Assembly (NCBI GenBank): GCA_016213945.1
Contig: JACQZF010000001.1
Coordinates: 5,831-69,830, forward strand
Length of the DNA stretch: 64,000 nt
Direction of reading: 5' to 3'
Origin: Nitrospirota bacterium
GTDB taxonomy: Bacteria > Nitrospirota > Thermodesulfovibrionia > UBA6902
The notes under the pieces were generated by a model that saw nothing but the letters and a program-made list of their open reading frames with translations, made no database searches and was not told where the DNA came from. Position 1 is the stretch's first letter; each line of letters starts with the position of its first letter. Shown here piece after piece: positions 1 through 52,286 of the stretch. The position numbers and the translations under genes were made by a program.

Positions 1-9
1 GAGGCAATT

Positions 10-273
10 ATGCTGTTTCTAATCTCAAGCGCGCCGGAAACAAAAGAATTCAAGACCGCATTCAACCTTGCAAAAGATATCAATGCTGATATCTGTCTTT
101 TGCAAAATGCCGTCTACGCTTCAAGAAATTCAAATGACAGCTCTTTATATGTTCTCCTTGACGAGCTGAAGCTCAGGGGAATTAATGAAAATGAAATATC
201 CGGCAAGCCGATAGACTACGGCAGGCTGATAGATTTAATGACTGAGACGGACAAGGTAGTGGGATTTTTTTAG
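10..273 (+). CDS. DsrH/TusB-like small sulfur-relay protein (87 aa)
   Basis: Size and composition resemble the DsrH/TusB family. It sits next to an SQR-like gene and a DsrE-like gene. A GAGG motif lies upstream of the ATG at 10. Assignment by family resemblance only. Confidence 0.4.
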   Translation: MLFLISSAPETKEFKTAFNLAKDINADICLLQNAVYASRNSNDSSLYVLLDELKLRGINENEISGKPIDYGRLIDLMTETDKVVGFF

Positions 274-300
274 AAACAATCATTTATCAGGGAGGGTAGG

Positions 301-1512
301 ATGAAGGCACATCATCAAATCTTAATTGTTGGAGGCGGCAACGCAGGCATTTCTGTTGCCGCGCAGCTTCTGCGTCAAAACTCAAAGCTGGATATAGCCA
401 TAGTAGAACCGTCCGAAAAACATTATTATCAGCCGGGCTGGACGCTTGTGGGTGGAGGTGTTTTTGACATTAACAGCACCGTGCGGAGTGAAGCCGATTA
501 TATACCTGCAAATGTAAAGTGGATCAAAGACAACGCTGACAAGTTTGAGCCGGAAAGCAACACGCTGATAACCGGGTCAGGCGGACGGATAACTTACGAT
601 TACATGGTCGTCTGCTGCGGCGCCCAGCTTAAGTGGGACGCAGCAAAAGGCTTGCGCGAGTCATTAGGCAAAAACGGCGTCTGCTCGATTTACAGCTTTA
701 ATACCGCCCCTTATACTTACGAATGCATTAAGAATTTCAACGGCGGCAAGGTAGTGTTTACACAGCCCGGCGGATTCAATAAATGCGGCGGCGCGCCTCA
801 GAAAATAATGTATCTCGCCGCGGATAATTTCAGGAAAAGAGGCATATTAGATAAAGCCGATATATCTTTCTTCACAGGTAAACCCGGGCTTCTGCGCGTT
901 AAGGAAATTAACGAACTCCTTCTGAAAGTAGTCAAGCGTTATAGCATCAAAGTTACCTATCAGGCGACCTTGAAAGAAGTCAGCGGCGAAACCAAAGAGG
1001 CGGTCTTTGAAGTCGTTAAGGGTGACAGTAAAGAGCAGGTGACCGCGCAGTATGATATGCTCCACGTATCTCCTATGGCTGCAGCCCCCGACTTTATCAA
1101 AAACAGCCCCCTCGCAGTCAAAGATGATCCGTTCGGATGGATTGATATTGACAAAGTCACAATGCAGCATAACAGGTACAAAAATGTATTCAGTCTCGGT
1201 GATGTTTCAAACGCAGGCGATACAAAGACAGGAGCCGCAGTGCACAAGCAGGCCCCTGTTGTGGTGACAAATCTGCTCTCTGCCATTGAGCGAAAATCCC
1301 TTACCGATCTGCCGGCCAAATATAACGGCTATACATCCTGCCCGCTTATCACGGGATACGGCAAATTAGTGCTGGCGGAATTTGACCATGACAACAAATT
1401 CCTGCCCACTTTCCCTTTGGAGCCGGCCAAAGAACGATACAGCATGTGGTTGTTGATCAAATACTTAATGCCGTGGTTCTACTGGAACAGAATCCTGAAG
1501 GGGAAATCGTAG
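301..1512 (+). CDS. FAD-dependent sulfide:quinone oxidoreductase-type flavoprotein (SQR/FCSD family)
   Basis: N-terminal dinucleotide-binding motif ILIVGGGNAGISVA. About 400 aa. Conserved Cys-containing segments (VVCCGAQL, KCGGAPQK) typical of the SQR / flavocytochrome c sulfide dehydrogenase flavoprotein family. RBS GGAGGG upstream. Confidence 0.6.
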   Translation: MKAHHQILIVGGGNAGISVAAQLLRQNSKLDIAIVEPSEKHYYQPGWTLVGGGVFDINSTVRSEADYIPANVKWIKDNADKFEPESNTLITGSGGRITYDYMVVCCGAQLKWDAAKGLRESLGKNGVCSIYSFNTAPYTYECIKNFNGGKVVFTQPGGFNKCGGAPQKIMYLAADNFRKRGILDKADISFFTGKPGLLRVKEINELLLKVVKRYSIKVTYQATLKEVSGETKEAVFEVVKGDSKEQVTAQYDMLHVSPMAAAPDFIKNSPLAVKDDPFGWIDIDKVTMQHNRYKNVFSLGDVSNAGDTKTGAAVHKQAPVVVTNLLSAIERKSLTDLPAKYNGYTSCPLITGYGKLVLAEFDHDNKFLPTFPLEPAKERYSMWLLIKYLMPWFYWNRILKGKS

Positions 1513-1609
1513 CATGAAGTGACGAGTGACGCGTAATGAGTAACGCGAAAACTGAAAAAGACCATTACGTATTTTACTCGCAGCCATTCACTCGGTACTA
1601 ACTTATAAT

Positions 1610-2398
1610 ATGGACATCCATTTTCTGACGACTCTCATCTTTCTCGGTCTCGGCGGCGGTTTTCTCTCCGGCCTCCTCGGACTTGGCGGAGCCATCTTCA
1701 TGATCCCGTTGCTTCTCTACGTCCCTCCGCTTTTGGGAGTCGGGCATCTTGATATGAAGCAGGTGGCGGCAATAAGTATGGTGCAGGTCCTCTTCGCATC
1801 TCTGACGGGACTTATTGTCCATAATAAAAACCGTTTTGTCAGCAAGTCGCTTCTTTTGTACATGGGAATATGTAATGCCATCGGCAACCTCGCAGGGTCC
1901 CTGTTCTCCAAGTACGCAAAGAGCGCATTCCTGCTGGCGATATTTGCTACGATGGCTGTGATCGCATCAATAGTCATGTTCATCCCGAAACGCGAACAGG
2001 GTGAAAAAATCTCTCCCGATGAGGTCCGGTATAACAAACCGCTGGCGATGTTCATGAGCCTTTTGATAGGCACTTTCGGAGGAATGGTCGGCGCTCCCGG
2101 CGCATTCATTTATATTCCCGTGATGATTTACCTGCTGAATATTCCTACACGCATCGTTATCGGCAGCACACTGGGCATTGTTTTCATGGGCGCGATCATG
2201 GGCACCATCGGCAAGATGGCTACAGGACAAATAATTTGGCCGTATGCATTTGCCCTTGTTATCGGCACAATACCAGGGGCCAGGGTTGGCGGGAACGTCA
2301 GCAAAAAAATCAGTACAAAATATCTGCGTCTTGCCATCGCAGTAATAATTGCAATAACCGGGATCAGGATGTGGTACCAGGTAGTGACTGGAAATTAA
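1610..2398 (+). CDS. TauE/SafE family sulfite/anion exporter (membrane protein)
   Basis: Very hydrophobic, with repeated GLGGG / GxxGAxG motifs (LGLGGGFLSGLLGLGGAIFMIPLL) diagnostic of the TauE/SafE (DUF81) family. Confidence 0.7.
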   Translation: MDIHFLTTLIFLGLGGGFLSGLLGLGGAIFMIPLLLYVPPLLGVGHLDMKQVAAISMVQVLFASLTGLIVHNKNRFVSKSLLLYMGICNAIGNLAGSLFSKYAKSAFLLAIFATMAVIASIVMFIPKREQGEKISPDEVRYNKPLAMFMSLLIGTFGGMVGAPGAFIYIPVMIYLLNIPTRIVIGSTLGIVFMGAIMGTIGKMATGQIIWPYAFALVIGTIPGARVGGNVSKKISTKYLRLAIAVIIAITGIRMWYQVVTGN

Positions 2399-2428
2399 TT
2401 TCTTTAAAACAATAAAGGATGGAAGAAA

Positions 2429-2851
2429 ATGGAAAAAATTGCTAAAAATGTTTCTGTAATGTGTTTCCATGATGAACTGTGTCAGGTTTACAATGCGCTT
2501 ATGACTGCATACAGTCTCTTGAAAGAGGGGGCCAAAGTCACAATATTTTTTGGGTCGCGCGGGGTCAACGCCCTTCATAAGGACAAGGTGAACAAGCTTG
2601 TTTGTTTGCCGGACCAGCCAAAAGAGGAAAGCGATGCCGTTATGAAAAGGATGGAGGATATGAACCTCCCTACGGCTGAAGATCTGCTTTTCATGCTCTA
2701 CAAGGAAGGAGCAAGGTTACTGGCCTGTCCCTTGAACGTCCCTCTTTTTGGCATGACTAAAAAAGATTTTGTTGATGGTGTTGAGGTAGCTGACCCCGCA
2801 ACATATTATAAGGAAGTTGTTATAAAAGCAGATATGAACCTGACGTTTTGA
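2429..2851 (+). CDS. DsrE/DsrF-like family protein (putative sulfur-carrier/sulfurtransferase)
   Basis: 140 aa with a KVTIFFGSRGVNAL segment resembling the DsrE/YchN fold family. Sits in the sulfur cluster context. RBS GGATGGAAG upstream. Confidence 0.4.
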   Translation: MEKIAKNVSVMCFHDELCQVYNALMTAYSLLKEGAKVTIFFGSRGVNALHKDKVNKLVCLPDQPKEESDAVMKRMEDMNLPTAEDLLFMLYKEGARLLACPLNVPLFGMTKKDFVDGVEVADPATYYKEVVIKADMNLTF

Positions 2852-2908
2852 TTGAGTCTGGACCGACCTTGTATTGAGGTTTTTTAAAAAAGTATATAAA
2901 ATTTCGCC

Positions 2909-3235
2909 ATGAGCAAGAAACTTTTTGAGATACATGCCGATATATGCAAGACACTGGGAAACGCCAAGAGGATAGAGATCCTCAGCGTACTTGAGAGCAA
3001 GGAGCTGAGTGTCGGCGAGATTGCCGACAGACTCGGCATATCAACTTCAAATGTCTCACAGCATCTTGCGGTCATGAAACAAAAAGGCATTCTTGTATCA
3101 AGGAGAGACAAAAACAATATTTTCTATAGGGTCTCAAATGAAAAAGTAATCACCGCATGCGGTCTGATGAGGGAAGTGCTGCTCGATAAATTTCAGGAAG
3201 GACATAAGATGGTCAGAAAGCTTGCAAAAAAGTAA
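2909..3235 (+). CDS. ArsR/SmtB family transcriptional regulator
   Basis: Winged-HTH ArsR signature: ILSVLESKELSVGEIADRLGISTSNVSQHLAVMKQKGILVSRRDKNNIFYRV. Confidence 0.8.
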   Translation: MSKKLFEIHADICKTLGNAKRIEILSVLESKELSVGEIADRLGISTSNVSQHLAVMKQKGILVSRRDKNNIFYRVSNEKVITACGLMREVLLDKFQEGHKMVRKLAKK

Positions 3236-3301
3236 TATTTTTTTATCTGGTACTTGCAGACTTTAGAATATTCTTGACTTATAATACATCAGCGCGTCGA
3301 T

Positions 3302-3360
3302 GTCACTCCCGCTTGTCGGGAGTCTTTCCGAGAAAATGATTCCGGACAAGCCGGAATGAC
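3302..3360. repeat. MITE/REP-like double-hairpin repeat, family R1, copy 1
   Basis: GTCACTCCCGCTTGTCGGGAGTC ... GATTCCGGACAAGCCGGAATGAC: two about 23-nt hairpins whose loops (CTTGT / ACAAG) are reverse complements. Related copies lie at 29453, 31777 and 61585. Confidence 0.7.
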
Positions 3361-3386
3361 AGAAAGAGAAGTGGAGGAAACAGAAA

Positions 3387-5705
3387 ATGCGTAAATTTTC
3401 ACTTGTTGAATTCTCCGTGAATCACCCTAAGCTGGTCGTATTGCTGACTATCATCGTTACCCTCGTCTCTATGACCCAGTTCACGAAGATCAGGACTGAT
3501 ACCAACCCCAAGCACATGCTGCCGGAGACGTCTGAAGTAAGGTTATGGAATGACGACGTGGATAAGGCCTTCAGTCTCTATGAAGACATGATAGTGGTCG
3601 GGATAGAGAATGAAAAAGGCGTTCTAAATAAGGACACTCTCGGCAAGATCATCAGGATTACTGATGAGATACTGAAAATTAAAGGCGTTGCAACAAGGGA
3701 CGTCAACAGCTTCCCCACCATTACTAATGTATCGGCGGAGGAAAGCGCCTTGAAGGTGGCGCCGCTTATGACCGAAGTTCCGAAAGATGACACAGAGATG
3801 CAGAGGCTCCGGAAAATGCTCTTTGAAAATCCGCTTTTTATAAACCGCATTATCTCAAAAGACGGGAAGACCACGGCAATCTACATTCCGCTCGAAAAAG
3901 GGGCAAACGGCAAAGAGATAGCGGACAAGATAAGAGAGATAGTGAGTAAAGAAAAGGGCGATGAGAAATATTATATCGCAGGCGACCCTGTCGCAAGGGA
4001 CACCTTCGGAGTGGAAATGTTCAAGCTCATGGCAGTCTTCGCGCCTATAGCAGGGATGATCATGCTTATTGTCCGGTATCTTATGTTCAGGGACATTTTC
4101 CTGTCTGTCACCCTGATGATGGACGCTATGGTGAGCATTGTCTGGAGCATGGGTCTTTTATTGGCTCTTGGATTTCCTGTTCATATCATGACTTCGATGG
4201 CCCCCGTATTTTTGATGGCGATTGCTACGGACAGCATACATATCTTCAACGAATTTTACTTCCGCTGCAGAGAGAAAACAGACAAGAAGACTGCAATAAT
4301 CGAGACGATGCATGCAGTGGGCCGTCCCGTGCGTTATACCGCGCTTGCGACTGCGGTGGGATTCGGTGTGCTTTTATTCATGCACATAATCCCGGTCAAG
4401 GTTTTTGGAGGAATGGTTGCATTCGGCACGGTTGCCCTGAGAATTCTAAGCTTCAGCTTCATACCCGCGATGTTTACCTTTGTGAAAGACGAACATATAG
4501 AGAAGGCGTCCAGGTCTGAAGATGCTGAATCGGGCAGGACGTCACAGTTCCTGAAGAAGCTTGCCGGCTTCGGAGCGCACAAGCCGAAGACCACTGTCTT
4601 TATCGGCCTGATATTTTTTGTGCTGGCAATCATAGGTATAACAAAAACAGTTGTTAACAATAATATGGTCGAGTGGTTCAAGAGGGACAGCGAAGTACGT
4701 GTTGCCGATACGGTCATGAATCAGGCCCTCGGCGGCACATCCCTTGGCTATGTTGTGGCTATTTCAGAAACTGAAGATTTCATAAAGACACCTGAGGCCA
4801 TGCGGTATATAGAGGGACTTCAGAGGCACATTGAGAAACTTCCAGTAGTCGGGAAGACGTCTTCGGTTGTTGATTACGTGAAAAGGATAAACCGTGTACT
4901 CCATGACAATGATCCCAAATATGATGTTGTGCCTGAAACAAAAGACACGATAGGTCAATATTTATTTTTGTTCTCAATGTCAGCAAAACCCACTGATCTG
5001 GATAATGTCGTTGATTACCCGTTCAAGAAGGCGAATATCTGGGTGCAGTTAAAGACATGGGATGCGCAGGCAATGAGGGATGTGATAAAGGCGGTGGATG
5101 AATACAAAATATCCAATCCGATACAGATGGAACTCAGACCCGCAGGCATTGCCTATTTCAATCTTATCTGGAACGATGAAGTGCTTTCGGACATGATAAA
5201 AGGCTTTATAATTGCGCTGATTGTGGTCTTTGTCATCCTCGTCTTTAACTTCCACTCCGTGAAATGGGCGATAGTGGGCTACACGCCGCTGCTTTTTACA
5301 ATCCTTCTCATCTATGGGGTCGTGGGATTTATCGGCAAAGACTTTGATATGCCAATAGCCGTGCTTTCTTGCCTGTCGCTCGGCATGGCAGTGGACTTTG
5401 CGATCCATTTCATAAGCAGGTTTAAACAAAGAGTGAAGGAACAAGAAGATGCAGGGGTGCCCGCTTCCATCACTGATGCATTACTCTGGACTGCCGCGCG
5501 TCCCGGCAAGGGGATAATGCGCAATGCGGTGCTTTTTGCATCGGCGTTTTCCGTGATGCTCTTTGCGCCATTAACACCGTACATCACTGTGGGCGCGTTT
5601 ATTGTCAGCATGATGCTGCTCAGCGCAGTAATGACAATAATCTTTCTGCCTGCGCTGATAATGCTGTTGCAGGGATGGTTGTTTAAATGTAATAAATGTT
5701 TGTAA
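3387..5705 (+). CDS. MMPL/RND superfamily exporter (12-TM, two large periplasmic loops)
   Basis: 772 aa. Two hydrophobic 6-TM bundles (about 190-390 and about 600-760), each preceded by a large soluble domain, as in the MMPL/HpnN/RND architecture. RBS GGAGGAAACAGAAAATG. Confidence 0.7.
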   Translation: MRKFSLVEFSVNHPKLVVLLTIIVTLVSMTQFTKIRTDTNPKHMLPETSEVRLWNDDVDKAFSLYEDMIVVGIENEKGVLNKDTLGKIIRITDEILKIKGVATRDVNSFPTITNVSAEESALKVAPLMTEVPKDDTEMQRLRKMLFENPLFINRIISKDGKTTAIYIPLEKGANGKEIADKIREIVSKEKGDEKYYIAGDPVARDTFGVEMFKLMAVFAPIAGMIMLIVRYLMFRDIFLSVTLMMDAMVSIVWSMGLLLALGFPVHIMTSMAPVFLMAIATDSIHIFNEFYFRCREKTDKKTAIIETMHAVGRPVRYTALATAVGFGVLLFMHIIPVKVFGGMVAFGTVALRILSFSFIPAMFTFVKDEHIEKASRSEDAESGRTSQFLKKLAGFGAHKPKTTVFIGLIFFVLAIIGITKTVVNNNMVEWFKRDSEVRVADTVMNQALGGTSLGYVVAISETEDFIKTPEAMRYIEGLQRHIEKLPVVGKTSSVVDYVKRINRVLHDNDPKYDVVPETKDTIGQYLFLFSMSAKPTDLDNVVDYPFKKANIWVQLKTWDAQAMRDVIKAVDEYKISNPIQMELRPAGIAYFNLIWNDEVLSDMIKGFIIALIVVFVILVFNFHSVKWAIVGYTPLLFTILLIYGVVGFIGKDFDMPIAVLSCLSLGMAVDFAIHFISRFKQRVKEQEDAGVPASITDALLWTAARPGKGIMRNAVLFASAFSVMLFAPLTPYITVGAFIVSMMLLSAVMTIIFLPALIMLLQGWLFKCNKCL

Positions 5706-5732
5706 ATATAAAAAACTTTGGAGGTGAGAGGA

Positions 5733-6242
5733 ATGAAAAAAGCAATAGTTCTGATTTTAAGTATCTTCGTAATCATCACGGCTCTGCCCGCACTTGCAGA
5801 GGACGACCTGGCAAAGAAAATGTCCGGGGTGCTCATGAAAGCGCCTGAGGACGGCGGCTGGCAGGTGACTTCCGATGAAGTCTACATGTGGATTAAGACC
5901 GGAAAGACGGACTTCATGGTTTTGGATGTAAGACCTGGTGTTGATGAATACAATGCAGGGCATATCCCTTCGGCAGTGCATATGCCGTATTACACGGTCC
6001 TGAATCCGGAGAATCTGTCAAAGCTTCCGAAGGTCAAAAAGCTCGTGCTTGCGTGCGCCACAGGACAGCTTGAAAATCTTCCGGTAGTAGGCTTGAGGAT
6101 GCTGGGATACGAGGCGTATACGCTTCTCTTCGGCTATGTCTCATGGATCAAAGATTATCCCGCCGGAGATGCAATTAAAAGCATAGTAGACAAAGCGGCT
6201 GCTAAAAATTATCCAATTGAACAGACAGGAGGTATGAAATGA
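5733..6242 (+). CDS. Periplasmic rhodanese-domain sulfurtransferase
   Basis: Signal peptide MKKAIVLILSIFVIITALPALA. Rhodanese fold motifs VLDVRPGVDEYNAGHIPSAVHMP and active-site loop LACATGQ. Start moved to the ATG at 5733, which follows GGAGGTGAGAGG. Confidence 0.8.
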   Translation: MKKAIVLILSIFVIITALPALAEDDLAKKMSGVLMKAPEDGGWQVTSDEVYMWIKTGKTDFMVLDVRPGVDEYNAGHIPSAVHMPYYTVLNPENLSKLPKVKKLVLACATGQLENLPVVGLRMLGYEAYTLLFGYVSWIKDYPAGDAIKSIVDKAAAKNYPIEQTGGMK

Positions 6243-6763
6243 AAGCAAGTTTAACAACAACAGATAACTTAAAAATCCCCCTTAATCCCCCTTTTTCAAA
6301 GGGGGAGATACGTCATGTCCCCCTCTTTGGAAAAGAGGGATCAGGGGAGATTTTAAAATGGATTGCAGTTCTATTGATAACAGTCTCCTTTTTATTTCCA
6401 CTAATCTCAATTGCTGCTGCCGCAGAAAAAGGCACAGAAGAAGAATTAAAAGAACGGATAGCGATAACGAACAAGAAACGTGTCACTCCAAAGGAGATAA
6501 AAAGGTTCACAGATCAGGTCAAAGCCTATTTCTTTGAAACGGTGCCGGATGACGTTATCGAGAGCGCGATGAAAGAACTCACACCCGGAGAGGCGCTCGC
6601 GGCGATTGTCATCACAAACCTTTCCAAAAAGCCCGGCAAGGACATCATAAAAATGAAAAAAGACGGAAAAAGCTGGACCGAAATCGTCAATGCTTCCGGT
6701 TTGAAGATGAAAGACGTGGTGAAAGAGGTCAAGGAATTCCAGAAGACATCAGGCTGCGCATAA
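6239..6763 (+). CDS. Hypothetical secreted protein; 5' end uncertain (overlaps repeat R2)
   Basis: Hydrophobic signal-like segment WIAVLLITVSFLFPLISIAAAAEK followed by a charged, Lys-rich soluble domain. The first about 40 codons of the tracked ORF translate the palindromic repeat, so the true start is probably downstream. Confidence 0.35.
   Translation: MKASLTTTDNLKIPLNPPFSKGEIRHVPLFGKEGSGEILKWIAVLLITVSFLFPLISIAAAAEKGTEEELKERIAITNKKRVTPKEIKRFTDQVKAYFFETVPDDVIESAMKELTPGEALAAIVITNLSKKPGKDIIKMKKDGKSWTEIVNASGLKMKDVVKEVKEFQKTSGCA
6271..6358. repeat. G/C-rich palindromic repeat, family R2, copy A
   Basis: AAAATCCCCCTTAATCCCCCTTTTTCAAAGGGGGAG...CCCCCTCTTTGGAAAAGAGGGATCAGGGGAGATTTTAAAA. Near-identical copy at 33392..33459. 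Overlaps the 5' end of ORF 6239..6763. Confidence 0.75.
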
Positions 6764-6772
6764 GGAGGCTGC

Positions 6773-8158
6773 ATGAAAAATATTTTTACAAAACCGTGGT
6801 CGTTCGTGTGGGGCGGGTTCATGGTCGGCCTTGCACAGGTGATTTACTTTCTTAAATATGAGACACCGATACCTATTACTACGGGCCTTGCAAAGATGTT
6901 CGGCTCCATCGAGGAGAATATTACAAAGACCGACTATATTACAAGATTATATGACGCTGATATTCACTGGATCATAATCGGTATCCTGCTTGGAGCGTTC
7001 CTTGTCGCAATACTTGAGAGGGAGCACAAGGCGTGGGCGAAATATCCTCCCCGTGTTGCCCTGCTTGCATTCATAGGCGGGGCGACATTCGGACTCGGCA
7101 CAAGGCTTGCGCAGGGATGCACTACATGGCACTATTTAGGCGGCATCCCGGCCATGAGTCTTACGTCTATTGTAGTGGCTCTTGTAAGTATTCCGTTTGC
7201 ATTTCTTGCATTTATGCTGATGACAAAACTCGATGCAGGCGGATACTTAAAGCACCACGAAAAACACGCTACAGTCAAACACTGTGTTGAACTGGAATAC
7301 CCGCATGACACGCTGTGTTATGACCCCAAATATAAACCGGGCAAAGACCCTCTGAGAATAATACTGACTGCGTTCCTGTTCCTGCTGCTGGCGTCAGCCT
7401 TCTACACGGCATTTACAGGAGAGTCCACAGAGGGCATCAGCCGCTTGCCGTGGACAGAGATACTTCTCAAGACATTCATCGGTGTCCTGCTTGGCTTTGG
7501 CATCGGGAAAACCGGCTTCGGCACGGAATGCGCCGTTATGGCGCCCCACTCCCTTCACATGTCACAAAAACATTTCGATTCCATGAAGGTCGCAAAGATA
7601 ACGCAGACCATGTTTACAGGGCTCCTGCCCTTTACCGCGCTGCTTGTGGCTATACTCATGTTCAATATAACGATACTCGTTACGTGGATATTCTTCGGAT
7701 GGGACATTCCGGTTGTTGTTGAATCAGGCAGATACAAGTGGGGGTTTCATCTCGGGCATCTTGTCGGCGGGCCGCTGTTAGGCATAGGCGCGGTCCTCAT
7801 GATCGGCTGCGAGATAAGGTCCTACGCCCGGACAGCTATGGGTTATCTTACAGGGCTGGCTTCGCTTCCGGGTTTTTTCTTCGGATATCTGCCGTTCACA
7901 CTTTACAAGCCGCAGTTTGAACAGGTTTTTTTCTCCAAAGGTTTTATGGAGGCCAAGAATATCCTTGAGCTCTTACCGGAGAATCCGTATATCCAATATG
8001 GTTTTGCATGCTGTTATACCGGGGTCCTCGCAGCGCTTCTCGTGTGGGCGATCAGAAAAGGCTCTCAGATGACAAAAGTAACTCCCAAAGAGTATCTTAC
8101 AGAATCCACAGACGAGATATTCTTGAAAGGACTTAAAACTAAAAATCAGGAGGGATGA
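6773..8158 (+). CDS. YeeE/YedE-family membrane protein (putative thiosulfate/sulfur-compound transporter)
   Basis: Polytopic membrane protein with repeated Gly-rich, Cys-containing loops (GGATFGLGTRLAQGCTTWHYLGG; GGPLLGIGAVLMIGCEIRS; GKTGFGTECAV) like the YeeE/YedE repeat motifs. Neighbours are rhodanese and sulfur genes. Confidence 0.55.
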   Translation: MKNIFTKPWSFVWGGFMVGLAQVIYFLKYETPIPITTGLAKMFGSIEENITKTDYITRLYDADIHWIIIGILLGAFLVAILEREHKAWAKYPPRVALLAFIGGATFGLGTRLAQGCTTWHYLGGIPAMSLTSIVVALVSIPFAFLAFMLMTKLDAGGYLKHHEKHATVKHCVELEYPHDTLCYDPKYKPGKDPLRIILTAFLFLLLASAFYTAFTGESTEGISRLPWTEILLKTFIGVLLGFGIGKTGFGTECAVMAPHSLHMSQKHFDSMKVAKITQTMFTGLLPFTALLVAILMFNITILVTWIFFGWDIPVVVESGRYKWGFHLGHLVGGPLLGIGAVLMIGCEIRSYARTAMGYLTGLASLPGFFFGYLPFTLYKPQFEQVFFSKGFMEAKNILELLPENPYIQYGFACCYTGVLAALLVWAIRKGSQMTKVTPKEYLTESTDEIFLKGLKTKNQEG

Positions 8159-8997
8159 TACAGATGAAAGAATTCAAGATTCAAAATTTAATATTCAAAA
8201 TTATGGTTGTCTTTCCCATTTGCTCTATGCTCTTTGCCCTTTGCTTACCTCTTTCTGCAGACGCCCTTACCGCTGAAGAAGTCGTCAAAAAATCCCAGGA
8301 GGCGTTCTTCTACCAGGGAAAGGACTTCAAAGCGCGGGTAATGATGAAGCTTATAAGCAAAAGCGGACAGGAGAGAGTTCGTGAACTCACCATGCTGAGA
8401 AAAAATTACGGCGCATCCGGCGGCGAGCAGAAGTATTTCATGTATTTCTATCAGCCTGCCGACGTGAAGGACATGACGTTCATGGTTTATAAATATCCGG
8501 CGAAGGACGATGACAGATGGCTATTTGTGCCTGCGATCAATATGGTGCGCAGGATTGCCGCGCAGGACAAAAGCTCAAGCTTTGTAGGATCTGATTTCAC
8601 ATACGAGGACGTTTCCGGCAGGGATATAGAAGACGATACCCATGAAATTGTAAAGGAAGAAAAACTCGGCGCAAATGATTGCTTCGTAATAAAGAGCGCT
8701 CCAAAGAAAGCTGATGTTGATTACAGCTATAAGCTTTCATGGATTGACAAGGGCAATTTCCTGCCTTTGAAAGATGAGTACTATGACAAAAAAGGCGGGC
8801 TCTACAGGGTATTCAGCGGTGAGGAAATCAAAGACGTGAAAGGTTTTCCTACTGTAACAAAGAGGACCATGAAAAACCTCTCGAGCGGCCACAGGACTGA
8901 GGTAACATATGTTAAAGCAGATTACAACATCAACATAGAGGATAATCTTTTCAGCGAACGCTTTCTCAAACAGCCGCCGAGAAAGTGGATAGAGTGA
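8155..8997 (+). CDS. Outer-membrane lipoprotein-sorting (LolA-like / DUF1329-type) periplasmic protein
   Basis: Signal peptide, about 280 aa. Its composition resembles LolA-fold partners of MMPL/RND exporters. Translationally coupled (ATGA overlap) to the upstream gene. Confidence 0.55.
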   Translation: MIQMKEFKIQNLIFKIMVVFPICSMLFALCLPLSADALTAEEVVKKSQEAFFYQGKDFKARVMMKLISKSGQERVRELTMLRKNYGASGGEQKYFMYFYQPADVKDMTFMVYKYPAKDDDRWLFVPAINMVRRIAAQDKSSSFVGSDFTYEDVSGRDIEDDTHEIVKEEKLGANDCFVIKSAPKKADVDYSYKLSWIDKGNFLPLKDEYYDKKGGLYRVFSGEEIKDVKGFPTVTKRTMKNLSSGHRTEVTYVKADYNINIEDNLFSERFLKQPPRKWIE

Positions 8998-9644
8998 GAT
9001 CTGTTGTTGAAGCCTTTGACCATCTTGCAGAAGATTATGACAAATGGTTCGATGCCCCCGAAGGGAAAATACTTTTTGATGCAGAGATCGAGGCAGTAAA
9101 GCTTCTTATGAAAGATATTTCGAAGCCATTCATTGAGATCGGGGTAGGAACAGGGAGATTTGCAAAGGCATTGGGAATTGAGTTTGGCATTGACCCTTCT
9201 CAAGAGGTTTTGAAAATAGCAGAAAAGCGCGGGATAAAGGTGAAGATGGCAACGGGCGAGAAACTGCCTTTTGAAGATGAATCCTTCGGCGGCGTATTTA
9301 TACTTTTTACGCTGTGTTTTGTGGAAAACCCTCAAAAGGTGATTTCCGAGGCCAAAAGAGTCTTAAAGAAAGCTGGAGGACTGATTGTTGGGATAATTAA
9401 TAGAGAAAGCCAGTGGGGTAAATTCTATCAGAGAAAAAAGAACGACGGACATCCTATTTATAAACATGCAATGTTTTATAGCGTCAGTGAGGTTAAAGAA
9501 ATAATAGAAAAGGCAGGCTTGAGTGTTGAGGCGTATTCATCAACATTATGTCAGCCACCATCGGAAAAGCCTGTGAAAGAGATTGTAAATAATAAATTGG
9601 TACATGATGCAGGTTTTATTTGTATCCGGGCAAAAAAACTTTAA
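8985..9644 (+). CDS. Class I SAM-dependent methyltransferase
   Basis: Motif I IEIGVGTGRFAKALG; acidic loop FEDESFGGVFI. GTG start overlapping the upstream stop. Confidence 0.7.
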   Translation: MDRVRSVVEAFDHLAEDYDKWFDAPEGKILFDAEIEAVKLLMKDISKPFIEIGVGTGRFAKALGIEFGIDPSQEVLKIAEKRGIKVKMATGEKLPFEDESFGGVFILFTLCFVENPQKVISEAKRVLKKAGGLIVGIINRESQWGKFYQRKKNDGHPIYKHAMFYSVSEVKEIIEKAGLSVEAYSSTLCQPPSEKPVKEIVNNKLVHDAGFICIRAKKL

Positions 9645-9694
9645 TATTCCCTTCTGTGAGGGAGAATAAAAAAAAATCAAAGGAGGACACTAAC

Positions 9695-10105
9695 ATGGTA
9701 ATCACAGATTATATAATGCTATTGCACAAAAGGGCTTCAATAAAGCCTGGTTCAACCGGGCGGGAAATTGCTTACAAGCTTATGTCAACCGGCCTGCCTG
9801 GGCTTCCGGTAGTAAATGAAAGTGACGAGGTCATAGGAGTGGTGACAGCATTTGATCTTCTTGGAAATATACGGGAAGGAGTGGACCTCTCTGAAATTGC
9901 CGCGGAGAAGATAATGTCAAAAGAGCCAAAGACCGCTGATATGAAGACTTCCGCCGAGGAGCTTATAGAAATAATGCTCGAAAACAATTTCACGATGATC
10001 CCTGTTGTAAAAGACAGAAAGCTTGTGGGAATAATAGACAGAACTTCTTTATTAAATGCCTACGTAGAGCCGGTGCTTCATCGATATTTTGGTGAACACA
10101 AATGA
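9695..10105 (+). CDS. CBS-domain pair protein
   Basis: Two CBS motifs (LPGLPVVNESDEVIGVVTAFDLL; FTMIPVVKDRKLVGIIDRTSLL). Start moved to the ATG at 9695, which follows AAAGGAGG. Confidence 0.7.
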   Translation: MVITDYIMLLHKRASIKPGSTGREIAYKLMSTGLPGLPVVNESDEVIGVVTAFDLLGNIREGVDLSEIAAEKIMSKEPKTADMKTSAEELIEIMLENNFTMIPVVKDRKLVGIIDRTSLLNAYVEPVLHRYFGEHK

Positions 10106-11343
10106 TAAGGCTTATTTTGATTCTCTTGCTTGCGACAAGCATTGCGTATCTATCTGCTTATGCTGAAGATGTAAGCCTGCACGGCTTTCTCCAGGGCAAC
10201 TATTCTGTTGATACCGCTAAATCAAATCCAAACGGTAAGGACTTCAAATGGGCGGAGGAAAGAGTCCAGTTAAAGCTTGATGCAAGCAAAGAGCCGTTCC
10301 GTCTGTTTTTGAAAACCGACATCTTCTACGACCACATTGACGATGCATCCCATTTAGACGTGAGAGAGGGGTATGCCGATTACACGTCTTCAATCTGGGA
10401 TGCAAGAACCGGCAGACAGATTATCACATGGGGGTTTGGGGATTTGATCTTTATCAACGATGTATTCCCGAAAGACTATGAGGCATTTTTCTCTGGGAGG
10501 CCGCTGGAATATCTGAAGATCGGTAGTGATGCTGTAAAGATCGGCATGTATCCGTCCTTTGCCTCTGCCGAGTTGATTATTATCCCGTTCTTTGAACCGA
10601 ACAACTTTCCCGATCACAAGAGATTCTTCATGTTTAATCCCATGCCTGCTGTAACAGAGAGGGAAGAAGAAAAACCGGCAACTACATTTGAAAACACGGA
10701 AGTTGCCTTCAGATTATATCGTGATGTGGCGGGCATGGATGCGTCATTGTATTTCTATCGCGGCTTTTTCAGGCAGCCTTCAATGCTTCCTGACAGTATA
10801 ACATCACCGGCAAAGATCGACCTCGTTTATCCTGAGCTTACCGTTTACGGCGCGAGCCTTCAGGGCAGGGCGTTAGATGGAGTTCTCAGTCTTGAGGCAG
10901 GATATTATGATTCAAGAGAAGACAGGGACGGCACAGACCCGATGGTCCCGAATTCACAGACAAGGTTTCTCGTTGGCTATCAGAGACAGATGTGGGAAGA
11001 CTGCACCCTCGGCCTTCAATACTACAGCGAATACATGGATGATTATTCAGAGTATGAAGAGAATCTCCCCTCCGGATTTCCGCAGGAAAAGAAACTGCAC
11101 CAGCTTGCCTCCGTGAGGCTTACACAATTTTTGATACATCAGACACTGCGGTTTTCCTTCTTTTCCTTCTACAGTCCGTCAGATGATGATTATCTGTTAA
11201 ACCCGGAAGTCAAATACAATTTCACCGATTCCGTGTGGGCGGCAGTTGGAGCGAGTGTATTTGGCGGCGGTGATGAGTGGGACCAGTTCGGGAGTCTTGA
11301 TGAGAATGACAATATTTATGTGCAAATAAGATATGAATTTTAA
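10102..11343 (+). CDS. Putative outer-membrane beta-barrel protein (DUF1302-like)
   Basis: Signal peptide MIRLILILLLATSIAYLSAYA. Alternating hydrophobic/aromatic beta-strand pattern. C-terminal aromatic residue (YVQIRYEF) typical of outer-membrane barrels. ATGA overlap with upstream gene. Confidence 0.5.
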   Translation: MIRLILILLLATSIAYLSAYAEDVSLHGFLQGNYSVDTAKSNPNGKDFKWAEERVQLKLDASKEPFRLFLKTDIFYDHIDDASHLDVREGYADYTSSIWDARTGRQIITWGFGDLIFINDVFPKDYEAFFSGRPLEYLKIGSDAVKIGMYPSFASAELIIIPFFEPNNFPDHKRFFMFNPMPAVTEREEEKPATTFENTEVAFRLYRDVAGMDASLYFYRGFFRQPSMLPDSITSPAKIDLVYPELTVYGASLQGRALDGVLSLEAGYYDSREDRDGTDPMVPNSQTRFLVGYQRQMWEDCTLGLQYYSEYMDDYSEYEENLPSGFPQEKKLHQLASVRLTQFLIHQTLRFSFFSFYSPSDDDYLLNPEVKYNFTDSVWAAVGASVFGGGDEWDQFGSLDENDNIYVQIRYEF

Positions 11344-11470
11344 CCTACAGTAAACCTTATCTTTGCGAAGTTTCAAAGTGACTGGATCATGATTGAAGCT
11401 GAATTAAATTTTTGTCTGTCCGGTCGCTGTTTTCTTTGGAGTTTCTTTAATTAAAAACAGAATAAAAAAA

Positions 11471-11501
11471 CTCCAGCAGCCGAAAAAATCGGCCGCTGGA
11501 G
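11471..11501. terminator. Bidirectional rho-independent terminator between convergent genes
   Basis: Hairpin CTCCAGCAGCCGA-aaaaa-TCGGCCGCTGGAG flanked by an A7 run upstream and TTTCTCTT downstream, so there is a U-run after the stem on both strands. Confidence 0.65.
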
Positions 11502-11520
11502 TTTCTCTTACGATCTTCCA

Positions 11521-33373: not shown

Positions 33374-33391
33374 TAGTCCACAAAATCCCCC

Positions 33392-33459
33392 TTTATCCCC
33401 CTTTTTCAAAGGGGGACTTAAACCCCCTCTTTGGTAAAGAGGGGTTAGGGGAGATTTTA
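33392..33459. repeat. G/C-rich palindromic repeat, family R2, copy B
   Basis: AAAATCCCCCTTTATCCCCCTTTTTCAAAGGGGGACTTAAACCCCCTCTTTGGTAAAGAGGGGTTAGGGGAGATTTTAC, between tilS and gltX. Confidence 0.75.
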
Positions 33460-39193: not shown

Positions 39194-40705
39194 TCACTTT
39201 TGTGTGGCCTTGACTCGCTCCTCCTGTGACATCTTGGCCAGTGACTTGACCTTTTTCAGATCCAATTCCAGTCCTTTTGCCACACGGCTGCCATAATCTG
39301 GGTCTGCTTTATAGAAAATGGCTGTCTGCCGGAGTTGGATGCGCTTCTGTGCGTTGCCCAGGTGGGAGACAATATTCCCAATGAGGTTAGTGCGGTCACT
39401 TTCTGTCATTACTTCCCGGTAAAGATCTCCAGCCTGTACAAAATCATCGTTCGGATGAATATATTCTTGACGAGCAGCCTGTCCCGAAACCGTAATGGCT
39501 GGACCCACTGCCTTTGGATCAGGCGCAGGGCCTCCGAAACTGTTTGGATAGTAGTTCGGGTAACCGATATTTGAAGTTCCTGGGTTCATGAAACCGTCAC
39601 GCTGATAGTTGTTAGTGTTGCTTGCTTTGGATGCATTGACTGGCAGAAGGTGGTAGTTAGGACCGAGCCTGTGCCGATGGGTGTCGTGATAACTGAACAA
39701 ACGCCCCTGTAACATTTTATCGGGAGACGGGCCAATCCCCGGCACAAAGTTGGCAGGAGAAAATGCAGACTGCTCCACCTCGGCAAAGTAGCTTTCAGGG
39801 TTACGGTTAAGCACCATGCGGCCTACTGTGACAGGAGGATAGTCGGCGTGAGGCCAAACCTTGGTAATATCAAAGGGGTCGAAGCGATATTTCTCAGCCT
39901 GCTCCGGCGTCATGATCTGAACCTCCAGTCTCCAGGAGGGATACTCACCTCGCTTTATCGCGTCAGAGAGGTCGCGTGTGGCGTGGTCAGGGTCCGCGCT
40001 TTTCATCCGGTCGGCTTCTTCACGTGTAAAACTCTTGATGCCCTGCTCGGTCTTAAAGTGGTATTGCACCCAGAAGTATTTGCCCTTGTCGTTGTACCAC
40101 ATGAAGGTGTGACTGCTGTAACCGTTCATGTGGCGGAAGCTCCTGGGTGTGCCCCTGTCTGAAAAAAGTATAGTCACCTGATGTATGGATTCCGGCGTAA
40201 GTGAAAGGAAGTCCCAGAACATATCCGGGTCTTTAAGATTGGTGACCGGGTGTCTCTTTTGAGTATGAATGAAGTCGGGGAATTTAAGAGGGTCTCGAAT
40301 GAAAAATACAGGCGTGTTATTCCCTACCATGTCATAGTTTCCCTCTTCGGTGTAAAACTTCACTGCAAAGCCGCGCGGATCACGCTCAGCATCCGCGGAA
40401 CCCTTTTCGCCGCCAACAGTTGAGAAACGCGCAAAAAGACCAGTTCGTTTCCCGACCTTTGAGAGGAACTTGGCTCTGGTGTACTTCGTGAGATCGTTAG
40501 TAGCCTCGAAATATCCGTAAGCGCCTGCGCCTTTTGCGTGAACGACACGTTCAGGAATACGTTCGCGATCGAAATGAGCCAGCTTTTCGAGCAGATGAAC
40601 GTCCTGCATCAGGACGGGACCCGGGTTACCCGCTGTCATACTGTTCTGGTCGTTATAGACCGACGCTCCAAAGTTGCCTGTCAATATCTTTTTATCTTCT
40701 GACAT
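39194..40705 (-). CDS. katA: Monofunctional heme catalase (small-subunit clade)
   Basis: [21 protein letters not shown] distal-His region. Proximal Tyr region [17 protein letters not shown]. 503 aa. Confidence 0.9.
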
Positions 40706-46014: not shown

Positions 46015-49000
46015 TTGGCTTTGAGTGAAAGTATATTTCAGATTGGGCAAGTGGTTGCCTTGAAATCCAACCCATCGGTCATGGGTGTTATTACAAAAAT
46101 ATTGCGAGGCGATCACGAAACACGTTATGAAGTTTTTCATGGAAATTCAAAGAATATATACTATGCAAGCCAAATAATTCCTTCTCAACAAACTGAAGAA
46201 GAAATTAAGACGATACCGCTAAATTTATTTAATGCGAGATTAACGGCAATACAAATCAATTATCCCGGAATTGCATCTCTCTATTCTCTGCATTCTGCAA
46301 GAGTCAATTTTATCCCATTTCAATTTAAACCCGTCCTGAAACTTATCCGCTCTGACCGCCCAAGATTGTTAATTGCAGATGAAGTGGGAGTCGGTAAGAC
46401 TATAGAAGCGGGATTGATTCTCCGTGAATTGCAGGCAAGAATGAATATTAAATCTATATTGGTTTTATGTCCCAAGCCTCTTGTTACTGATCGAAAGTGG
46501 CAGCTTGAGTTAAAGCGTTTTGACGAAGAATTTACACACCTTGATGGTCCTGCTTTACGCTACTGTATTAATGAAACGGATTTAGACGGAAGATGGCCGA
46601 CTCAGCATAGTAAAACCATTATGCCTTTTTCACTTTTCAATGAGTCGCTCTTAACTGGAGAAGGAAAAGGAAAAAAGAAACAGAAGGGCCTTCTTGAACT
46701 TGACCCGCCGGTTCAGTTTGACCTCGTTATAATTGACGAGGCGCATCATTTGCGTAATACAAACACTTATATTCATCAGGTAGCACGGTATTTCTGTGAA
46801 AACGCAGAGGCTATACTCCTGCTCTCTGCAACACCTATACAATTGGGAGATAATGATCTTTATGTCCTGCTCAACCTGTTACGTCCAGACTTGATTATTG
46901 ACCGCAGCAGTTTTGAACACATGGCAGAACCTAATCCTTTTATTAACCAGGCAATAGATGTTGCACGTGCCGCTCAGCCTCAATGGGAAGCAAGAAGCAG
47001 GGCTGCTTTAAGTGAGGCATCGTTAACAAGCTGGGGGCAAAGAATGCTGAAAAGTAATCCTGATTTTCAACAGGCAATAACGCTTCTTGAAAATCCTTTG
47101 TCCGCAGAGCAACGCCTTGAATTTGTCCGGGCCACTGAACAATTTCATACATTTTCGGGGTTGATTAACAGAACAAGGAGAAGGGACATAGGCGCCTTCA
47201 CTCTCCGCAAATCAGAGACAGTTACGATTGAGTTTACTCAGGAACAGAAGGACCTTCATGATTCTTTACTGGATATACAAGCAGAAATGCTTGGCATGAT
47301 TCATGATCCCCAGCATATTAAATTTATGATGACAACACTGAGAAGACAGGCCTCAAGTTGCATTCATGGGCTTGTTCCATTGATGCAGGCTATATTGAAC
47401 AGGAATCTAAGCAGGGTTACAGATGGTGATAATCTTGAGGAAGATTGGGAAGAATCATTAACTGCATTTAACGACGCTATCCAGAAGATAACCAAACAAG
47501 ACCTTACAAGTCTTATGAGTAAATTTCAGACCATTATTGAAGCAGGGAAAAGACTTAATAAAAGAGATCCGAAATCAGAAGCATTGCTAAATGTAATAAA
47601 ACAAAAACAGTCACTCCCTAATAATAAAATTCTGATTTTCAGTACCTTCCGCCATACACTGACTTATCTCTATACGAAAATGGTCAAGGGCGGGGTAAGG
47701 GTTGGAATGATACATGGCGATATCAAAGATTATGAGAGACTGGAACTAAGACATCGTTTCAGTCTGCCAAAAGAGAACGCTGATGCAATAGATATCCTGC
47801 TTTCCTCTGAAGTCGGTTGTGAAGGATTGGATTATCAATTCTGCGATTGCATGGTTAACTATGATATACCCTGGAACCCCATGAGAGTTGAACAGCGTAT
47901 CGGGCGCATAGACAGATACGGGCAGAAGAGCGAGAGTGTGCTTATCTATAACTTCATCACTCCTGACACAGTGGATGCAGATATATATGAACGCTGTCTT
48001 ATAAGAATCGGGGTTTTTCAAAGAAGTCTTGGAGGCAGTGAGGAGATATTAGGGAAAATCAGTCGGCAGATAATGGATATAGCAGAAAATTATAAGCTTA
48101 CGGAAGACGAAAGGAAAAGAAAATTGCAGCAGCTTGCAGATAATGAAATCCGCCTTCAAATGGAACAGGATGAATTGGAAGAAAGGCAGGCAGAGCTATT
48201 CGGGCTTAGTCTTCCGCTGGATAAAGCGAGAAAGGATATTGAAGACGCGAGTAGTTTCTGGCTTAGCCCTGAAGCGCTGCAGAATCTTGTAGAAACATAT
48301 CTGCAAAAAGTCACCGGAGCAGAACAATCCCTTCTTGGAGAGAAGGACTCAAAAACATTGCGGTTAAATCAAGAGGCAAGAAATAGACTTTTATCAGATT
48401 ACCGTCAGATACCGAAACAATCTTCCCCTGTTTATAGGGACTGGGAGAAATGGCTTAAGGGTGGAGATGCACATCTTCCGCTTACTTTTGACGCCGGGTA
48501 CGCTACAGAAAACCGGGACATTATTTTTATTACACCAGTCCACCCTCTTATACGTCAGGCGGCATCTACACTCCATGAGAAGCCGCCTCTTTATGTCATT
48601 GTTAGATATCCTGGTTATTCAATACCATCTGGGAAGTATCCATTTGCTGTTTACCAATGGCAAAAGACAGGGGTCAAATCAGATGCGGAGTTTCAGGTGA
48701 TTTGTAGTTCAGAAGCTGTTTCCAGCTCCTTTATGCAGTTGATTACAACAGCAACCGATGCAGAAGAAGGCCTTTATGGACTACCGGACAAGCATGTTTT
48801 TGACGAACTGGATAAGCAGCATTACGGTCTGTGGATTAATGCGAGAGATAAACACGTTCAGAGTAATAACCGAATGATAGAATTTCGTACCGAGAGTTTA
48901 AAAACGAGTCATAACGCAAGACTGAATCAACTGAATGATCTGTTAAGCAGGGCGGAAAACGATAGGATACAACGCATGAGAATTAGCCAGATTGCATCGG

Positions 49001-49104: not shown

Positions 49105-49117
49105 AGGGGGACAGTAG

Positions 49118-52240: not shown

Positions 52241-52286
52241 TCTCAAATTAGAGACCTCAGGTTTTTAGATATTACTTTAATATTTT

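Follow-up and report, generated by a model that had tools for sequence, protein, structure and literature searches.

A cluster of plus-strand genes near the start of a 64,000-nucleotide (nt) stretch of DNA from a Nitrospirota bacterium (Thermodesulfovibrionia, UBA6902; assembly GCA_016213945.1, contig JACQZF010000001.1, positions 5,831 to 69,830 of the forward strand), which is called the window here, encodes an inner-membrane pump, a periplasmic carrier and an outer-membrane beta-barrel, together with several sulfur-handling proteins. The pump is an MMPL protein of the resistance-nodulation-division (RND) type and the carrier belongs to the LolA_like family; these three components, in the order MMPL, LolA_like and barrel, are the invariant core of the system. 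We give a probability of roughly 45% to the reading that they form an ArsR-controlled conduit dedicated to sulfur, which likely exports the S8 or long polysulfane made by a sulfide:quinone oxidoreductase (SQR), and into which a YeeE relay for import has been spliced. A more far-reaching version is more tentative still, namely that the trio is a dedicated non-covalent carrier of S8 or polysulfane over the periplasm and outer membrane, that it is the first such route described, that it is switched on by a sulfane-sensing ArsR protein with two cysteines, and that it has spread among groundwater Nitrospirota and other anaerobes.

A conserved transport trio

The three core proteins are encoded in the window as follows.

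3387-5705, plus strand: MMPL/HAE3-like RND inner-membrane transporter, 772 amino acids (aa) (PF03176), core component 1
8155-8997, plus strand: soluble periplasmic LolA_like carrier (PF17131, 211 bits), core component 2
10102-11343, plus strand: outer-membrane beta-barrel, 413 aa, distantly DUF1302/Wzi-like, with a signal peptide and the C-terminal sequence ...RYEF, core component 3

One genome per GTDB species was scanned with an MMPL alignment, and the best 80 of 138 relatives were kept as loci, which were compared through tblastn searches with the window proteins and through a clustering of all open reading frames (ORFs). The counts given below refer to loci with enough room for the gene in question, that is, at least 3 kb downstream of MMPL for LolA_like and the barrel, at least 3 kb upstream for the sulfur and ArsR genes, and at least 6 kb downstream for YeeE, the methyltransferase and the CBS protein. 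More distant relatives were drawn from a library of 50%-identity representatives. The 80 loci are mostly from metagenome-assembled genomes of Nitrospirota from groundwater and sediment, and a minority are in bins labelled Rokubacteria/Methylomirabilota, Deltaproteobacteria, Desulfobacterales, Elusimicrobia, Omnitrophica, KSB1 and Planctomycetota. The homologues closest to the window YeeE, MMPL and barrel proteins are nearly all from Nitrospirota/Thermodesulfovibrionia bins.

LolA_like is encoded downstream of MMPL in 59 of 61 loci and the barrel in 57 of 61, and 56 of 61 have both. Of the five loci without LolA_like or the barrel, four contain the YeeE cassette described below and break off before those genes. 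MMPL is directly adjacent to LolA_like in 36 loci, and the two genes overlap by 4 nt in 19 of these. The layout that could be called canonical in the related loci is ArsR – DsrE-like – DsrE-like – DsrH – SQR – (ArsR) – DsrE2 – MMPL – LolA_like – (methyltransferase) – barrel. The arrangement is not a matter of chance; dozens of species-level genomes share this order of genes.

The MMPL protein matches PF03176 in two stretches (112.6 bits, cutoff 20.5), and the Patched and sterol-sensing profiles also match it. Its score against the HAE3 model TIGR00921 is 195.7 bits (E 1e-57), which is under the cutoff of 351.9, and a search of PDB sequences returned no chain at E<=1e-5. Hydropathy profiles, a crude method from which all transmembrane (TM) and signal-sequence calls here were made, indicate a 1+5 / 1+5 layout with two periplasmic loops of about 175 aa (TM1 at residues ~17-35, loop 36-206, TM2-6 207-363, TM7 404-422, loop 423-603 and TM8-12 604-761). 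Two aspartates, D282 (ATDS) and D670 (AVDF), are invariant in 20 sequences and are candidates for the acidic proton-relay residues that RND proteins have in the TM4 and TM10 regions. Identity to the window protein is 71-84% over the best 80 loci, and 71-93% over more than 120 clusters and 80 genomes. It is high in bins that carry the labels of different phyla, high-GC Rokubacteria among them, while that of LolA_like falls to 53% and that of the barrel to 36%. The conservation of MMPL suggests strong constraint, recent horizontal spread, or both.

The LolA_like protein has a signal sequence, lacks a conserved lipobox cysteine and has a weak additional match to DUF1329 (27.1 bits). Its solved relatives are LolA3 of P. 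gingivalis (9tp6, 2.7e-41), 3bk5 and 4z48. It matches PF17131 and not the LolA family profile, and no Lol genes are present near the operon, so that by profile and by LolCDE/LolB context it is not LolA proper. The P. gingivalis LolA3 has a hydrophobic groove, is without the LolA arginine and the LolA/LolB signature residues, and barely binds LolB (PMC13103446).

The barrel has no Pfam match by itself (11.3 bits against DUF1302, cutoff 23.2). However, 40 of 40 of its homologues match DUF1302 at E<=1 (best 2.4e-8) and 31 of the 40 also match Wzi. The initial annotation, which was made from the sequence of the window alone, had called this protein a DUF1302-like barrel; the outer-membrane barrel holds, whereas the kinship with DUF1302 is distant.

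Several of the nearest 50%-identity representatives are MMPL–LolA_like fusions (P0361, P0366, P0367, P0368 and P0455), and fusions are also present in two distant loci, L088 and L090. The representatives, of about 1030-1050 aa, have a full LolA_like domain (171-210 bits) C-terminal to the MMPL part, and fused relatives are 38-57% identical to the window MMPL, with one at 27%. A 13th hydrophobic segment between the two halves would place the carrier in the periplasm. The fusions support a physical coupling of the pump and the carrier.

Sulfur genes around the trio

At least one of the genes encoding ArsR, DsrE2, DsrH and SQR is upstream of MMPL in 57 of 63 loci. The connection of the exporter trio with sulfur genes that was noticed in the window is therefore real and conserved. 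In the window these upstream genes, together with TauE, are the following.

10-273, plus strand: DsrH/TusB-like small sulfur-carrier subunit (PF04077, 31.8 bits; TIGR03011, 38.6 bits)
301-1512, plus strand: predicted SQR, type II (human SQOR-like), from similarity to human SQOR structures
1610-2398, plus strand: TauE/SafE-family anion exporter, putatively for sulfite or thiosulfate (PF01925, 157 bits), with multiple hydrophobic segments
2429-2851, plus strand: DsrE2-like cytoplasmic sulfur carrier (PF13686, 59.7 bits) with four conserved cysteines
2909-3235, plus strand: ArsR/SmtB-family regulator with a conserved cysteine pair (PF01022), a candidate thiol/persulfide sensor

Profile searches confirmed the earlier assignment of all five, DsrH, SQR (Pyr_redox_2), TauE, DsrE2 and ArsR. 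The product of 301-1512 is predicted to be a type II SQR, since it aligns over its full length (residues 4-401) with the human SQOR structures at 5e-102. The same slot in locus L003 (4721-5908) encodes a type I SQR of the Aquifex/Acidithiobacillus kind (Aquifex 3hyv, 6e-95), which is a non-orthologous replacement. The flavoprotein in this slot is an SQR in all cases examined, yet of differing type. Cys12, Cys18, Cys59 and Cys100 of DsrE2 are 97-100% conserved in 37 homologues. Hydropathy indicates no TM segments in SQR, DsrE2, the methyltransferase or the CBS protein.

The linkage persists in relatives whose MMPL is much less similar to that of the window. For example, L089 (38% MMPL identity) has the order ArsR–MMPL–LolA_like–barrel–YgaP-like TM protein, and in L090 (40%) the MMPL–LolA_like fusion and the barrel come immediately after two genes for ArsR–rhodanese fusions and one for a rhodanese. 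In L088 (57%), an Aminotran_5 protein (cysteine-desulfurase-like), a Cys/Met pyridoxal phosphate enzyme, OsmC and ArsR surround the fusion and a DUF1302-like barrel.

The window starts at DsrH, and in related loci two DsrE-like genes come just before it. In L003, the first gene of this DsrE–DsrE–DsrH triplet (3660-4016) has an in-frame TGA that ends the ORF. Equivalent 76-aa ORFs are present in 31 related loci, just upstream of the position equivalent to the start of the window. Read-through of the L003 TGA gives a full-length DsrE-like protein of 119 aa (...FL-U-GGC...), and the TGA probably encodes selenocysteine at the active-site position. In about nine loci selD and a TauE gene adjoin the cluster, selD presumably because the cluster encodes this probable selenoprotein.

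These selenium-related genes bear on another possible cargo. The conduit could carry a different chalcogen or metalloid, either Se0 or methylated or thiolated arsenicals, and besides selD, TauE and the in-frame TGA one could cite the membership of the regulator in the ArsR family, the methyltransferase in about 44% of the loci, and the neighbours of the L088 system, which include a glyoxalase-fold protein, a methyltransferase, ArsR and LMWPc. However, SQR, DsrE/H, DsrE2, rhodanese and Fer4/CCG proteins all belong to the canonical sulfur machinery, the regulator is without the known As(III)-binding cysteine motifs and resembles BigR, HlyU and YgaV, and the methyltransferase has no match at the level of ArsM. 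A selenium or arsenic cargo is thus very improbable.

Operon structure and regulation

Between positions 10 and 11343 there are 13 plus-strand ORFs. The initial annotation had singled out eight of these, from 3387 to 11343, as an apparent operon with overlaps or gaps of less than 15 nt. All eight are present at these positions, and the spacing is as described at most junctions; at two of them the real gaps are 27 and 50 nt, because the mechanically called ORF starts at 5718 and 9620 are too early. The most likely start of the rhodanese is ATG 5733 (mechanical start TTG 5718) and that of the CBS protein is ATG 9695 (mechanical start TTG 9620). From MMPL to the barrel, the junctions are then 27, -4, 9, -4, -4 (GTGA; or -13), 50 and -4 nt, where the first -4 junction, which follows the rhodanese, is an ATGA overlap between start and stop.

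With the most plausible starts, a GGAGG-type Shine-Dalgarno sequence precedes the genes for MMPL, rhodanese, the 174-aa protein, YeeE, LolA_like and the CBS protein. These sites, the four 4-nt start/stop overlaps and a single terminator bear out the operon-like layout. No convincing terminator was found within 3387-11343, and a scan with Rfam found no RNA family in the region, its sole match being a tRNA at 56 kb. A scan for sigma-70 promoters gave 29 matches, which is near the 19.9 ± 4.6 expected from shuffled sequence, and no clear promoter. The best reading is that the eight genes are one unit, predicted to be ArsR-controlled. The non-coding elements that belong to it are the following.

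3263-3276: operator-like palindrome TTAGAATATTCTTG (consensus TTAGAATATTCTAA) between ArsR and MMPL
3301-3361: composite inverted repeat of 61 nt in the MMPL leader, between the palindrome and the MMPL start
11464-11508: 20-bp GC-rich hairpin with A and T runs at its flanks, a likely bidirectional terminator that closes the operon

The ArsR protein has relatives of solved structure that include HlyU, BigR, YgaV and SqrR. BigR, SqrR and YgaV are ArsR-family repressors that respond to persulfide or sulfide. Like them, the window regulator is small, belongs to the ArsR/SmtB family and has two conserved cysteines, and its gene has genes for SQR, TauE and DsrE-type proteins and an AT-rich palindrome as neighbours. 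The two cysteines, C13 in HAxxCK and C83 in AC[GS]LM, are conserved in most of 26 MMPL-proximal homologues and also in the ArsR of L091, the locus whose MMPL is 44% identical to that of the window. Unlike in BigR and SqrR, the first cysteine is in helix 1 (HAxxCK), and the residue that aligns with the HlyU/BigR-type cysteine is a serine. The score against the BigR model is 56 bits (cutoff 155), and so the protein falls outside the BigR/SqrR-type equivalogs.

A search for an ArsR operator upstream of 3387, as proposed in the initial annotation, found the palindrome at 3263-3276, which agrees with the consensus at 12 of 14 positions. It occurs once within the window, which is not significant by itself; its weight comes from its conserved position. 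It recurs in the same place, just 3' of ArsR, in the closest loci, and 10 of its 20 matches in 1.32 Mb of loci are within 400 nt upstream of MMPL. The inverted repeat at 3301-3361 has 27-nt arms, each with its own 7-bp hairpin, and is absent from related loci with short leaders of 58-75 nt.

Optional modules

The other five of the eight genes, and a repeat element in one of them, are listed here.

5733-6242, plus strand: secreted single-domain rhodanese (PF00581, 41.6 bits) with an N-terminal hydrophobic signal
6239-6763, plus strand: secreted all-alpha protein of 174 aa, which travels with rhodanese and YeeE (AlphaFold2 model)
6262-6350 (copy 1) and 33383-33458 (copy 2): element of about 85 nt resembling a repetitive extragenic palindrome or miniature inverted-repeat transposable element (REP/MITE), bounded by the terminal inverted repeats AAAATCCCCC...GGGGAGATTTT and containing two hairpins
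6773-8158, plus strand: divergent YeeE/YedE-family membrane protein, 461 aa (PF04143, 88.7 bits, cutoff 27)
8994-9644, plus strand (GTG 8994, GTGA overlap; or GTG 8985): class I S-adenosylmethionine-dependent methyltransferase, accessory (Methyltransf_11, PF08241, 66.9 bits)
9695-10105, plus strand: stand-alone CBS-pair protein, a rare accessory (PF00571, 79.4 bits, two stretches)

Unlike the trio, these genes come and go. YeeE is present in 10 of 45 loci (~22%), the methyltransferase in 20 of 45 (~44%) and the CBS protein in four of 45 (~9%), which are also the only four among all 80 loci. Together with the counts for the trio, this means that the window operon is composite, with an invariant trio and optional modules. 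The rhodanese, 174-aa and YeeE genes are always between MMPL and LolA_like, and other inserts use the same point. Among these are a Fer4+CCG pair (HdrC/B-like) and a DUF3373 barrel, which likewise count as sulfur or redox proteins, and a membrane protein without assignment. The embedded sulfur genes, which had seemed to be an unusual peculiarity of the window, are therefore an optional cassette, and the comparison of MMPL neighbourhoods both strengthened the sulfur interpretation and re-framed it as a conserved trio with modular sulfur cassettes.

The active-site cysteine of the rhodanese (CATGQL) is invariant in 14 homologues. The YeeE-like and LolA-like assignments withstood profile searches, with the scores listed above. 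C116, C171, C253 and C346 of the YeeE protein are invariant in 19 homologues. The protein weakly matches the Spirochaeta YeeE structures, and C116 and C346 align with the cysteine-containing loops of the latter. It is below equivalog level for the TsuA and YedE/FdhT models (best scores of 48.2 bits, cutoff 400, and 33.2 bits, cutoff 350). No TusA-like gene was found in 1-11500, and the neighbours of YeeE are the secreted rhodanese and DsrE2. YeeE homologues in a sulfur-oxidising symbiont lineage are encoded in a rhodanese–YeeE–Fer4/CCG block. In a Thiodiazotropha-like contig (L086:3058-6745), this block adjoins genes for a periplasmic protein of the phosphonate-binding type (PBP), a HAMP histidine kinase and a sigma-54 response regulator, and the same three genes follow the barrel in seven to eight loci (among them L015, L016, L026, L042, L045 and L047); they are absent from the window.

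The 174-aa protein has no Pfam or NCBIfam match and no fold match in the PDB. AlphaFold2 models it confidently as a helical bundle of seven helices (pLDDT 83), and its homologues of 132-147 aa have Sec signal peptides. Copy 1 of the REP/MITE-like element is inserted in frame within the n-region of its signal peptide and adds about 30 residues that are absent in 15 homologues. A native long N-terminus was considered for this ORF and was rejected, as the extra residues are the repeat-element insertion. Copy 2 of the element is between tilS and gltX.

The methyltransferase and the CBS protein are best regarded as optional add-ons. The nearest structures to the methyltransferase are structural-genomics proteins whose substrates are unknown. 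The suggestion in the initial annotation that the transported compound may be methylated finds no support other than this generic class I enzyme, which is an accessory.

The cassette also raises the possibility that the same machine runs in reverse. The barrel and LolA_like would then capture external or periplasmic S0 and deliver it to an NPC1-like MMPL acceptor, and rhodanese and YeeE would import it for disproportionation, reduction or Dsr-based oxidation. The rhodanese–Hyp–YeeE cassette sits exactly between MMPL and LolA_like, where it would be co-expressed with them, and the Patched and sterol-sensing profiles match MMPL. A similar system in Thalassolituus, TOL_3187 and TOL_3188, is induced by a growth substrate (PMC6304351), and in two papers DsrEFH-type carriers together with YeeE are tied to sulfur disproportionation and oxidation (PMC13293266, PMC12998232). 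On the other hand, the best-conserved partner of the trio, SQR, generates zero-valent sulfur within the envelope, and about 78% of the loci are without the YeeE cassette. To our knowledge, the bacterial RND/MMPL proteins characterised so far are exporters, which also counts against uptake. Such a reversal seems unlikely to us, yet it has to be taken seriously.

A possible mechanism for sulfur export

In the export reading, SQR would oxidise sulfide at the membrane to zero-valent sulfur, in the form of water-insoluble S8 or long polysulfane. The MMPL pump, powered by proton-motive force, would remove this insoluble sulfur from the inner membrane or the periplasm and pass it to LolA_like, which may hold it non-covalently in its hydrophobic groove, and the barrel would release it to the exterior. 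Reactive sulfane sulfur would take another path, from the secreted rhodanese and the helical protein inward through the four-cysteine YeeE-like channel, and the cytoplasmic DsrE2 and DsrE/H-type carriers would accept it from YeeE. A rise in sulfane sulfur would cause ArsR to lift its repression of the operon. We infer both this regulation and the handover steps.

The distribution of cysteines would fit two such chemistries. The MMPL and barrel alignments have no invariant or nearly invariant cysteine, and in LolA_like the best cysteine is 87% conserved and none is invariant. The contrast between the cysteine-bearing rhodanese, YeeE and DsrE2 and the cysteine-poor trio would suggest a covalent relay on the one hand and non-covalent hydrophobic carriage on the other.

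Several points weigh against this reading. The cargo and the direction of transport are deduced from gene context. Type II SQR is generally placed at the cytoplasmic face, and so a pick-up of its product in the periplasm fits less well than it would with a type I enzyme. None of ArsR, DsrE2, DsrH and SQR is upstream of MMPL in six of 63 loci, and the palindrome is present in only nine of 79 loci, which are those with the closest ArsR. In L091 (44% MMPL identity), an Ame-like BNR protein precedes MMPL–LolA_like and the neighbours are genes for cytochrome c maturation, with ArsR still after. No cultured isolate is among the 80 loci, and all of the close relatives are metagenome bins. The AlphaFold2 model of the barrel, built with 40 sequences, is strand-rich but of low confidence (pLDDT 53), and Foldseek searches with it returned generic outer-membrane barrels alone (TM-score ~0.3); because the model is poor, the relation to DUF1302 is settled at the profile level only. 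The RND relatives of MMPL include NPC1 and Patched, and family membership leaves the direction of transport unfixed. For TOL_3187 and TOL_3188, which are induced by alkane, a role in uptake was proposed (PMC6304351).

Comparison with known systems

The closest precedent in terms of its parts is AmeABCD of Castellaniella defragrans, which consists of the HAE3 RND protein AmeD, the DUF1302 protein AmeA, the DUF1329/LolA-superfamily protein AmeB and the BNR-like AmeC, and was proposed to expel very hydrophobic molecules, in this case monoterpenes (PMC6394551). Both systems have an HAE3-type pump, a LolA-superfamily periplasmic protein and an outer-membrane barrel, the last two of which take the place of a pair of membrane-fusion protein and outer-membrane factor. 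They also differ in several ways. The eight window genes include no AmeC-like BNR/COG4447 domain, and a BNR-like gene precedes MMPL only in L091. The window barrel has 413 aa and is distantly DUF1302-like, whereas AmeA has 605 aa. The periplasmic protein of the window is a PF17131 protein and not a full DUF1329 protein like AmeB. Finally, Ame belongs to monoterpene catabolism, while the context in the window is sulfide oxidation, sulfur carriers and ArsR.

Thalassolituus oleivorans has the MMPL–LolA_like fusion TOL_3187 and the porin-like protein TOL_3188, which has no domain match, and both are induced on the n-C28 alkane (PMC6304351). In its parts this system agrees with the window, including a barrel without a clear domain match. 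Outside of its own clade, the window MMPL has its nearest relatives among fusions of the TOL_3187 type. Unlike TOL_3187, the pump and carrier in the window are encoded by separate genes, and their neighbours are sulfur genes and not alkane degradation genes. In aryl-polyene clusters, ApeL (LolA-like), ApeM (RND) and ApeN (LolB-like) are proposed to deliver a hydrophobic product to the outer membrane from the inner one (PMC8253772). This is again an RND protein with a LolA-like carrier, but the Ape system ends in a LolB-like lipoprotein instead of a barrel and sits in a lipid-biosynthesis cluster.

Two other systems are similar on the sulfur side. The Azospira suillum operon Dsui_3440-3443 encodes an RND pump, an SQR and a membrane-fusion protein, and is induced during H2S oxidation (PMC5358917). 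Thus an SQR is encoded with an RND pump there as well; however, that pump is a classical cation/multidrug RND with a membrane-fusion protein, and LolA_like, the DUF1302-like barrel and the Dsr-type carriers are lacking. PMC13293266 and PMC12998232 describe DsrEFH type II and YTD clusters with synteny of yeeE, tusA and dsrE in Nitrospirota. These clusters, as described there, resemble the window in having a Sulf_transp channel with conserved cysteines beside DsrE-family carriers in Nitrospirota. They differ in that the window YeeE is a divergent protein of 461 aa with four invariant cysteines and has a secreted rhodanese and a helical protein as partners in place of TusA. Keyword look-ups returned no passage on an RND partner in either paper, and none on an MMPL, LolA-like or outer-membrane partner in PMC12998232.

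The family precedents are conduits for hydrophobic cargo, and the conserved linkage to sulfur appears to be new in that no published description of it was found; the literature searched for MMPL, LolA or RND proteins in combination with sulfur, whose coverage falls short of all journals, does not describe it. The precedents also make a more general role conceivable, in which the trio is an efflux or lipid-trafficking system for hydrophobic compounds, such as solvents, damaged quinones and hopanoid-like or outer-membrane lipids, that is only co-regulated with a sulfide-stress regulon and does not carry sulfur. Its known relatives carry hydrocarbons, pigments or lipids, the sulfide-induced RND pumps of Azospira were interpreted as a general stress response (PMC5358917), L091 has its Ame-type BNR partner, and the six loci mentioned above are without sulfur neighbours. 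This explanation, which also has to be taken seriously, is nevertheless improbable. The association with ArsR, rhodanese, DsrE and SQR persists from 93% to 38% MMPL identity and in bins of several phyla, two SQR types occupy one slot, and genes for lipid biosynthesis or hydrocarbon catabolism do not recur in the neighbourhoods.

Models of the sulfur cycle have long lacked a route by which insoluble elemental sulfur would enter or leave diderm cells, be it in sulfide oxidation to external sulfur, in sulfur disproportionation or in sulfur reduction. The locus provides a concrete and testable candidate. Conduits of its type are familiar from hydrocarbons and lipids, and this one regularly neighbours SQR, sulfur carriers of the Dsr type and regulators of the thiol type in subsurface Nitrospirota and, with modifications, occurs in other phyla. 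It also gives a functional context to HAE3-like MMPL proteins outside of the actinobacteria, to PF17131 LolA_like proteins and to DUF1302-like barrels, and it marks out the rhodanese/helical-protein/YeeE cassette as a candidate module for import that is separable from the trio. Should the cargo prove to be a lipid or a solvent, the locus would still be a clear case in which efflux or a remodelling of the envelope is coupled to sulfide stress.

Other features of the window

Two further features of the window are outside of the operon. A defence-island-like group at 46015-54014 consists of an SNF2/ResIII helicase (1029 aa), a sacsin/HSP90-like protein (1040 aa) and a minus-strand NERD–UvrD-type helicase. 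A full-length catalase is encoded at 39194-40705, although the host is presumably an anaerobe.

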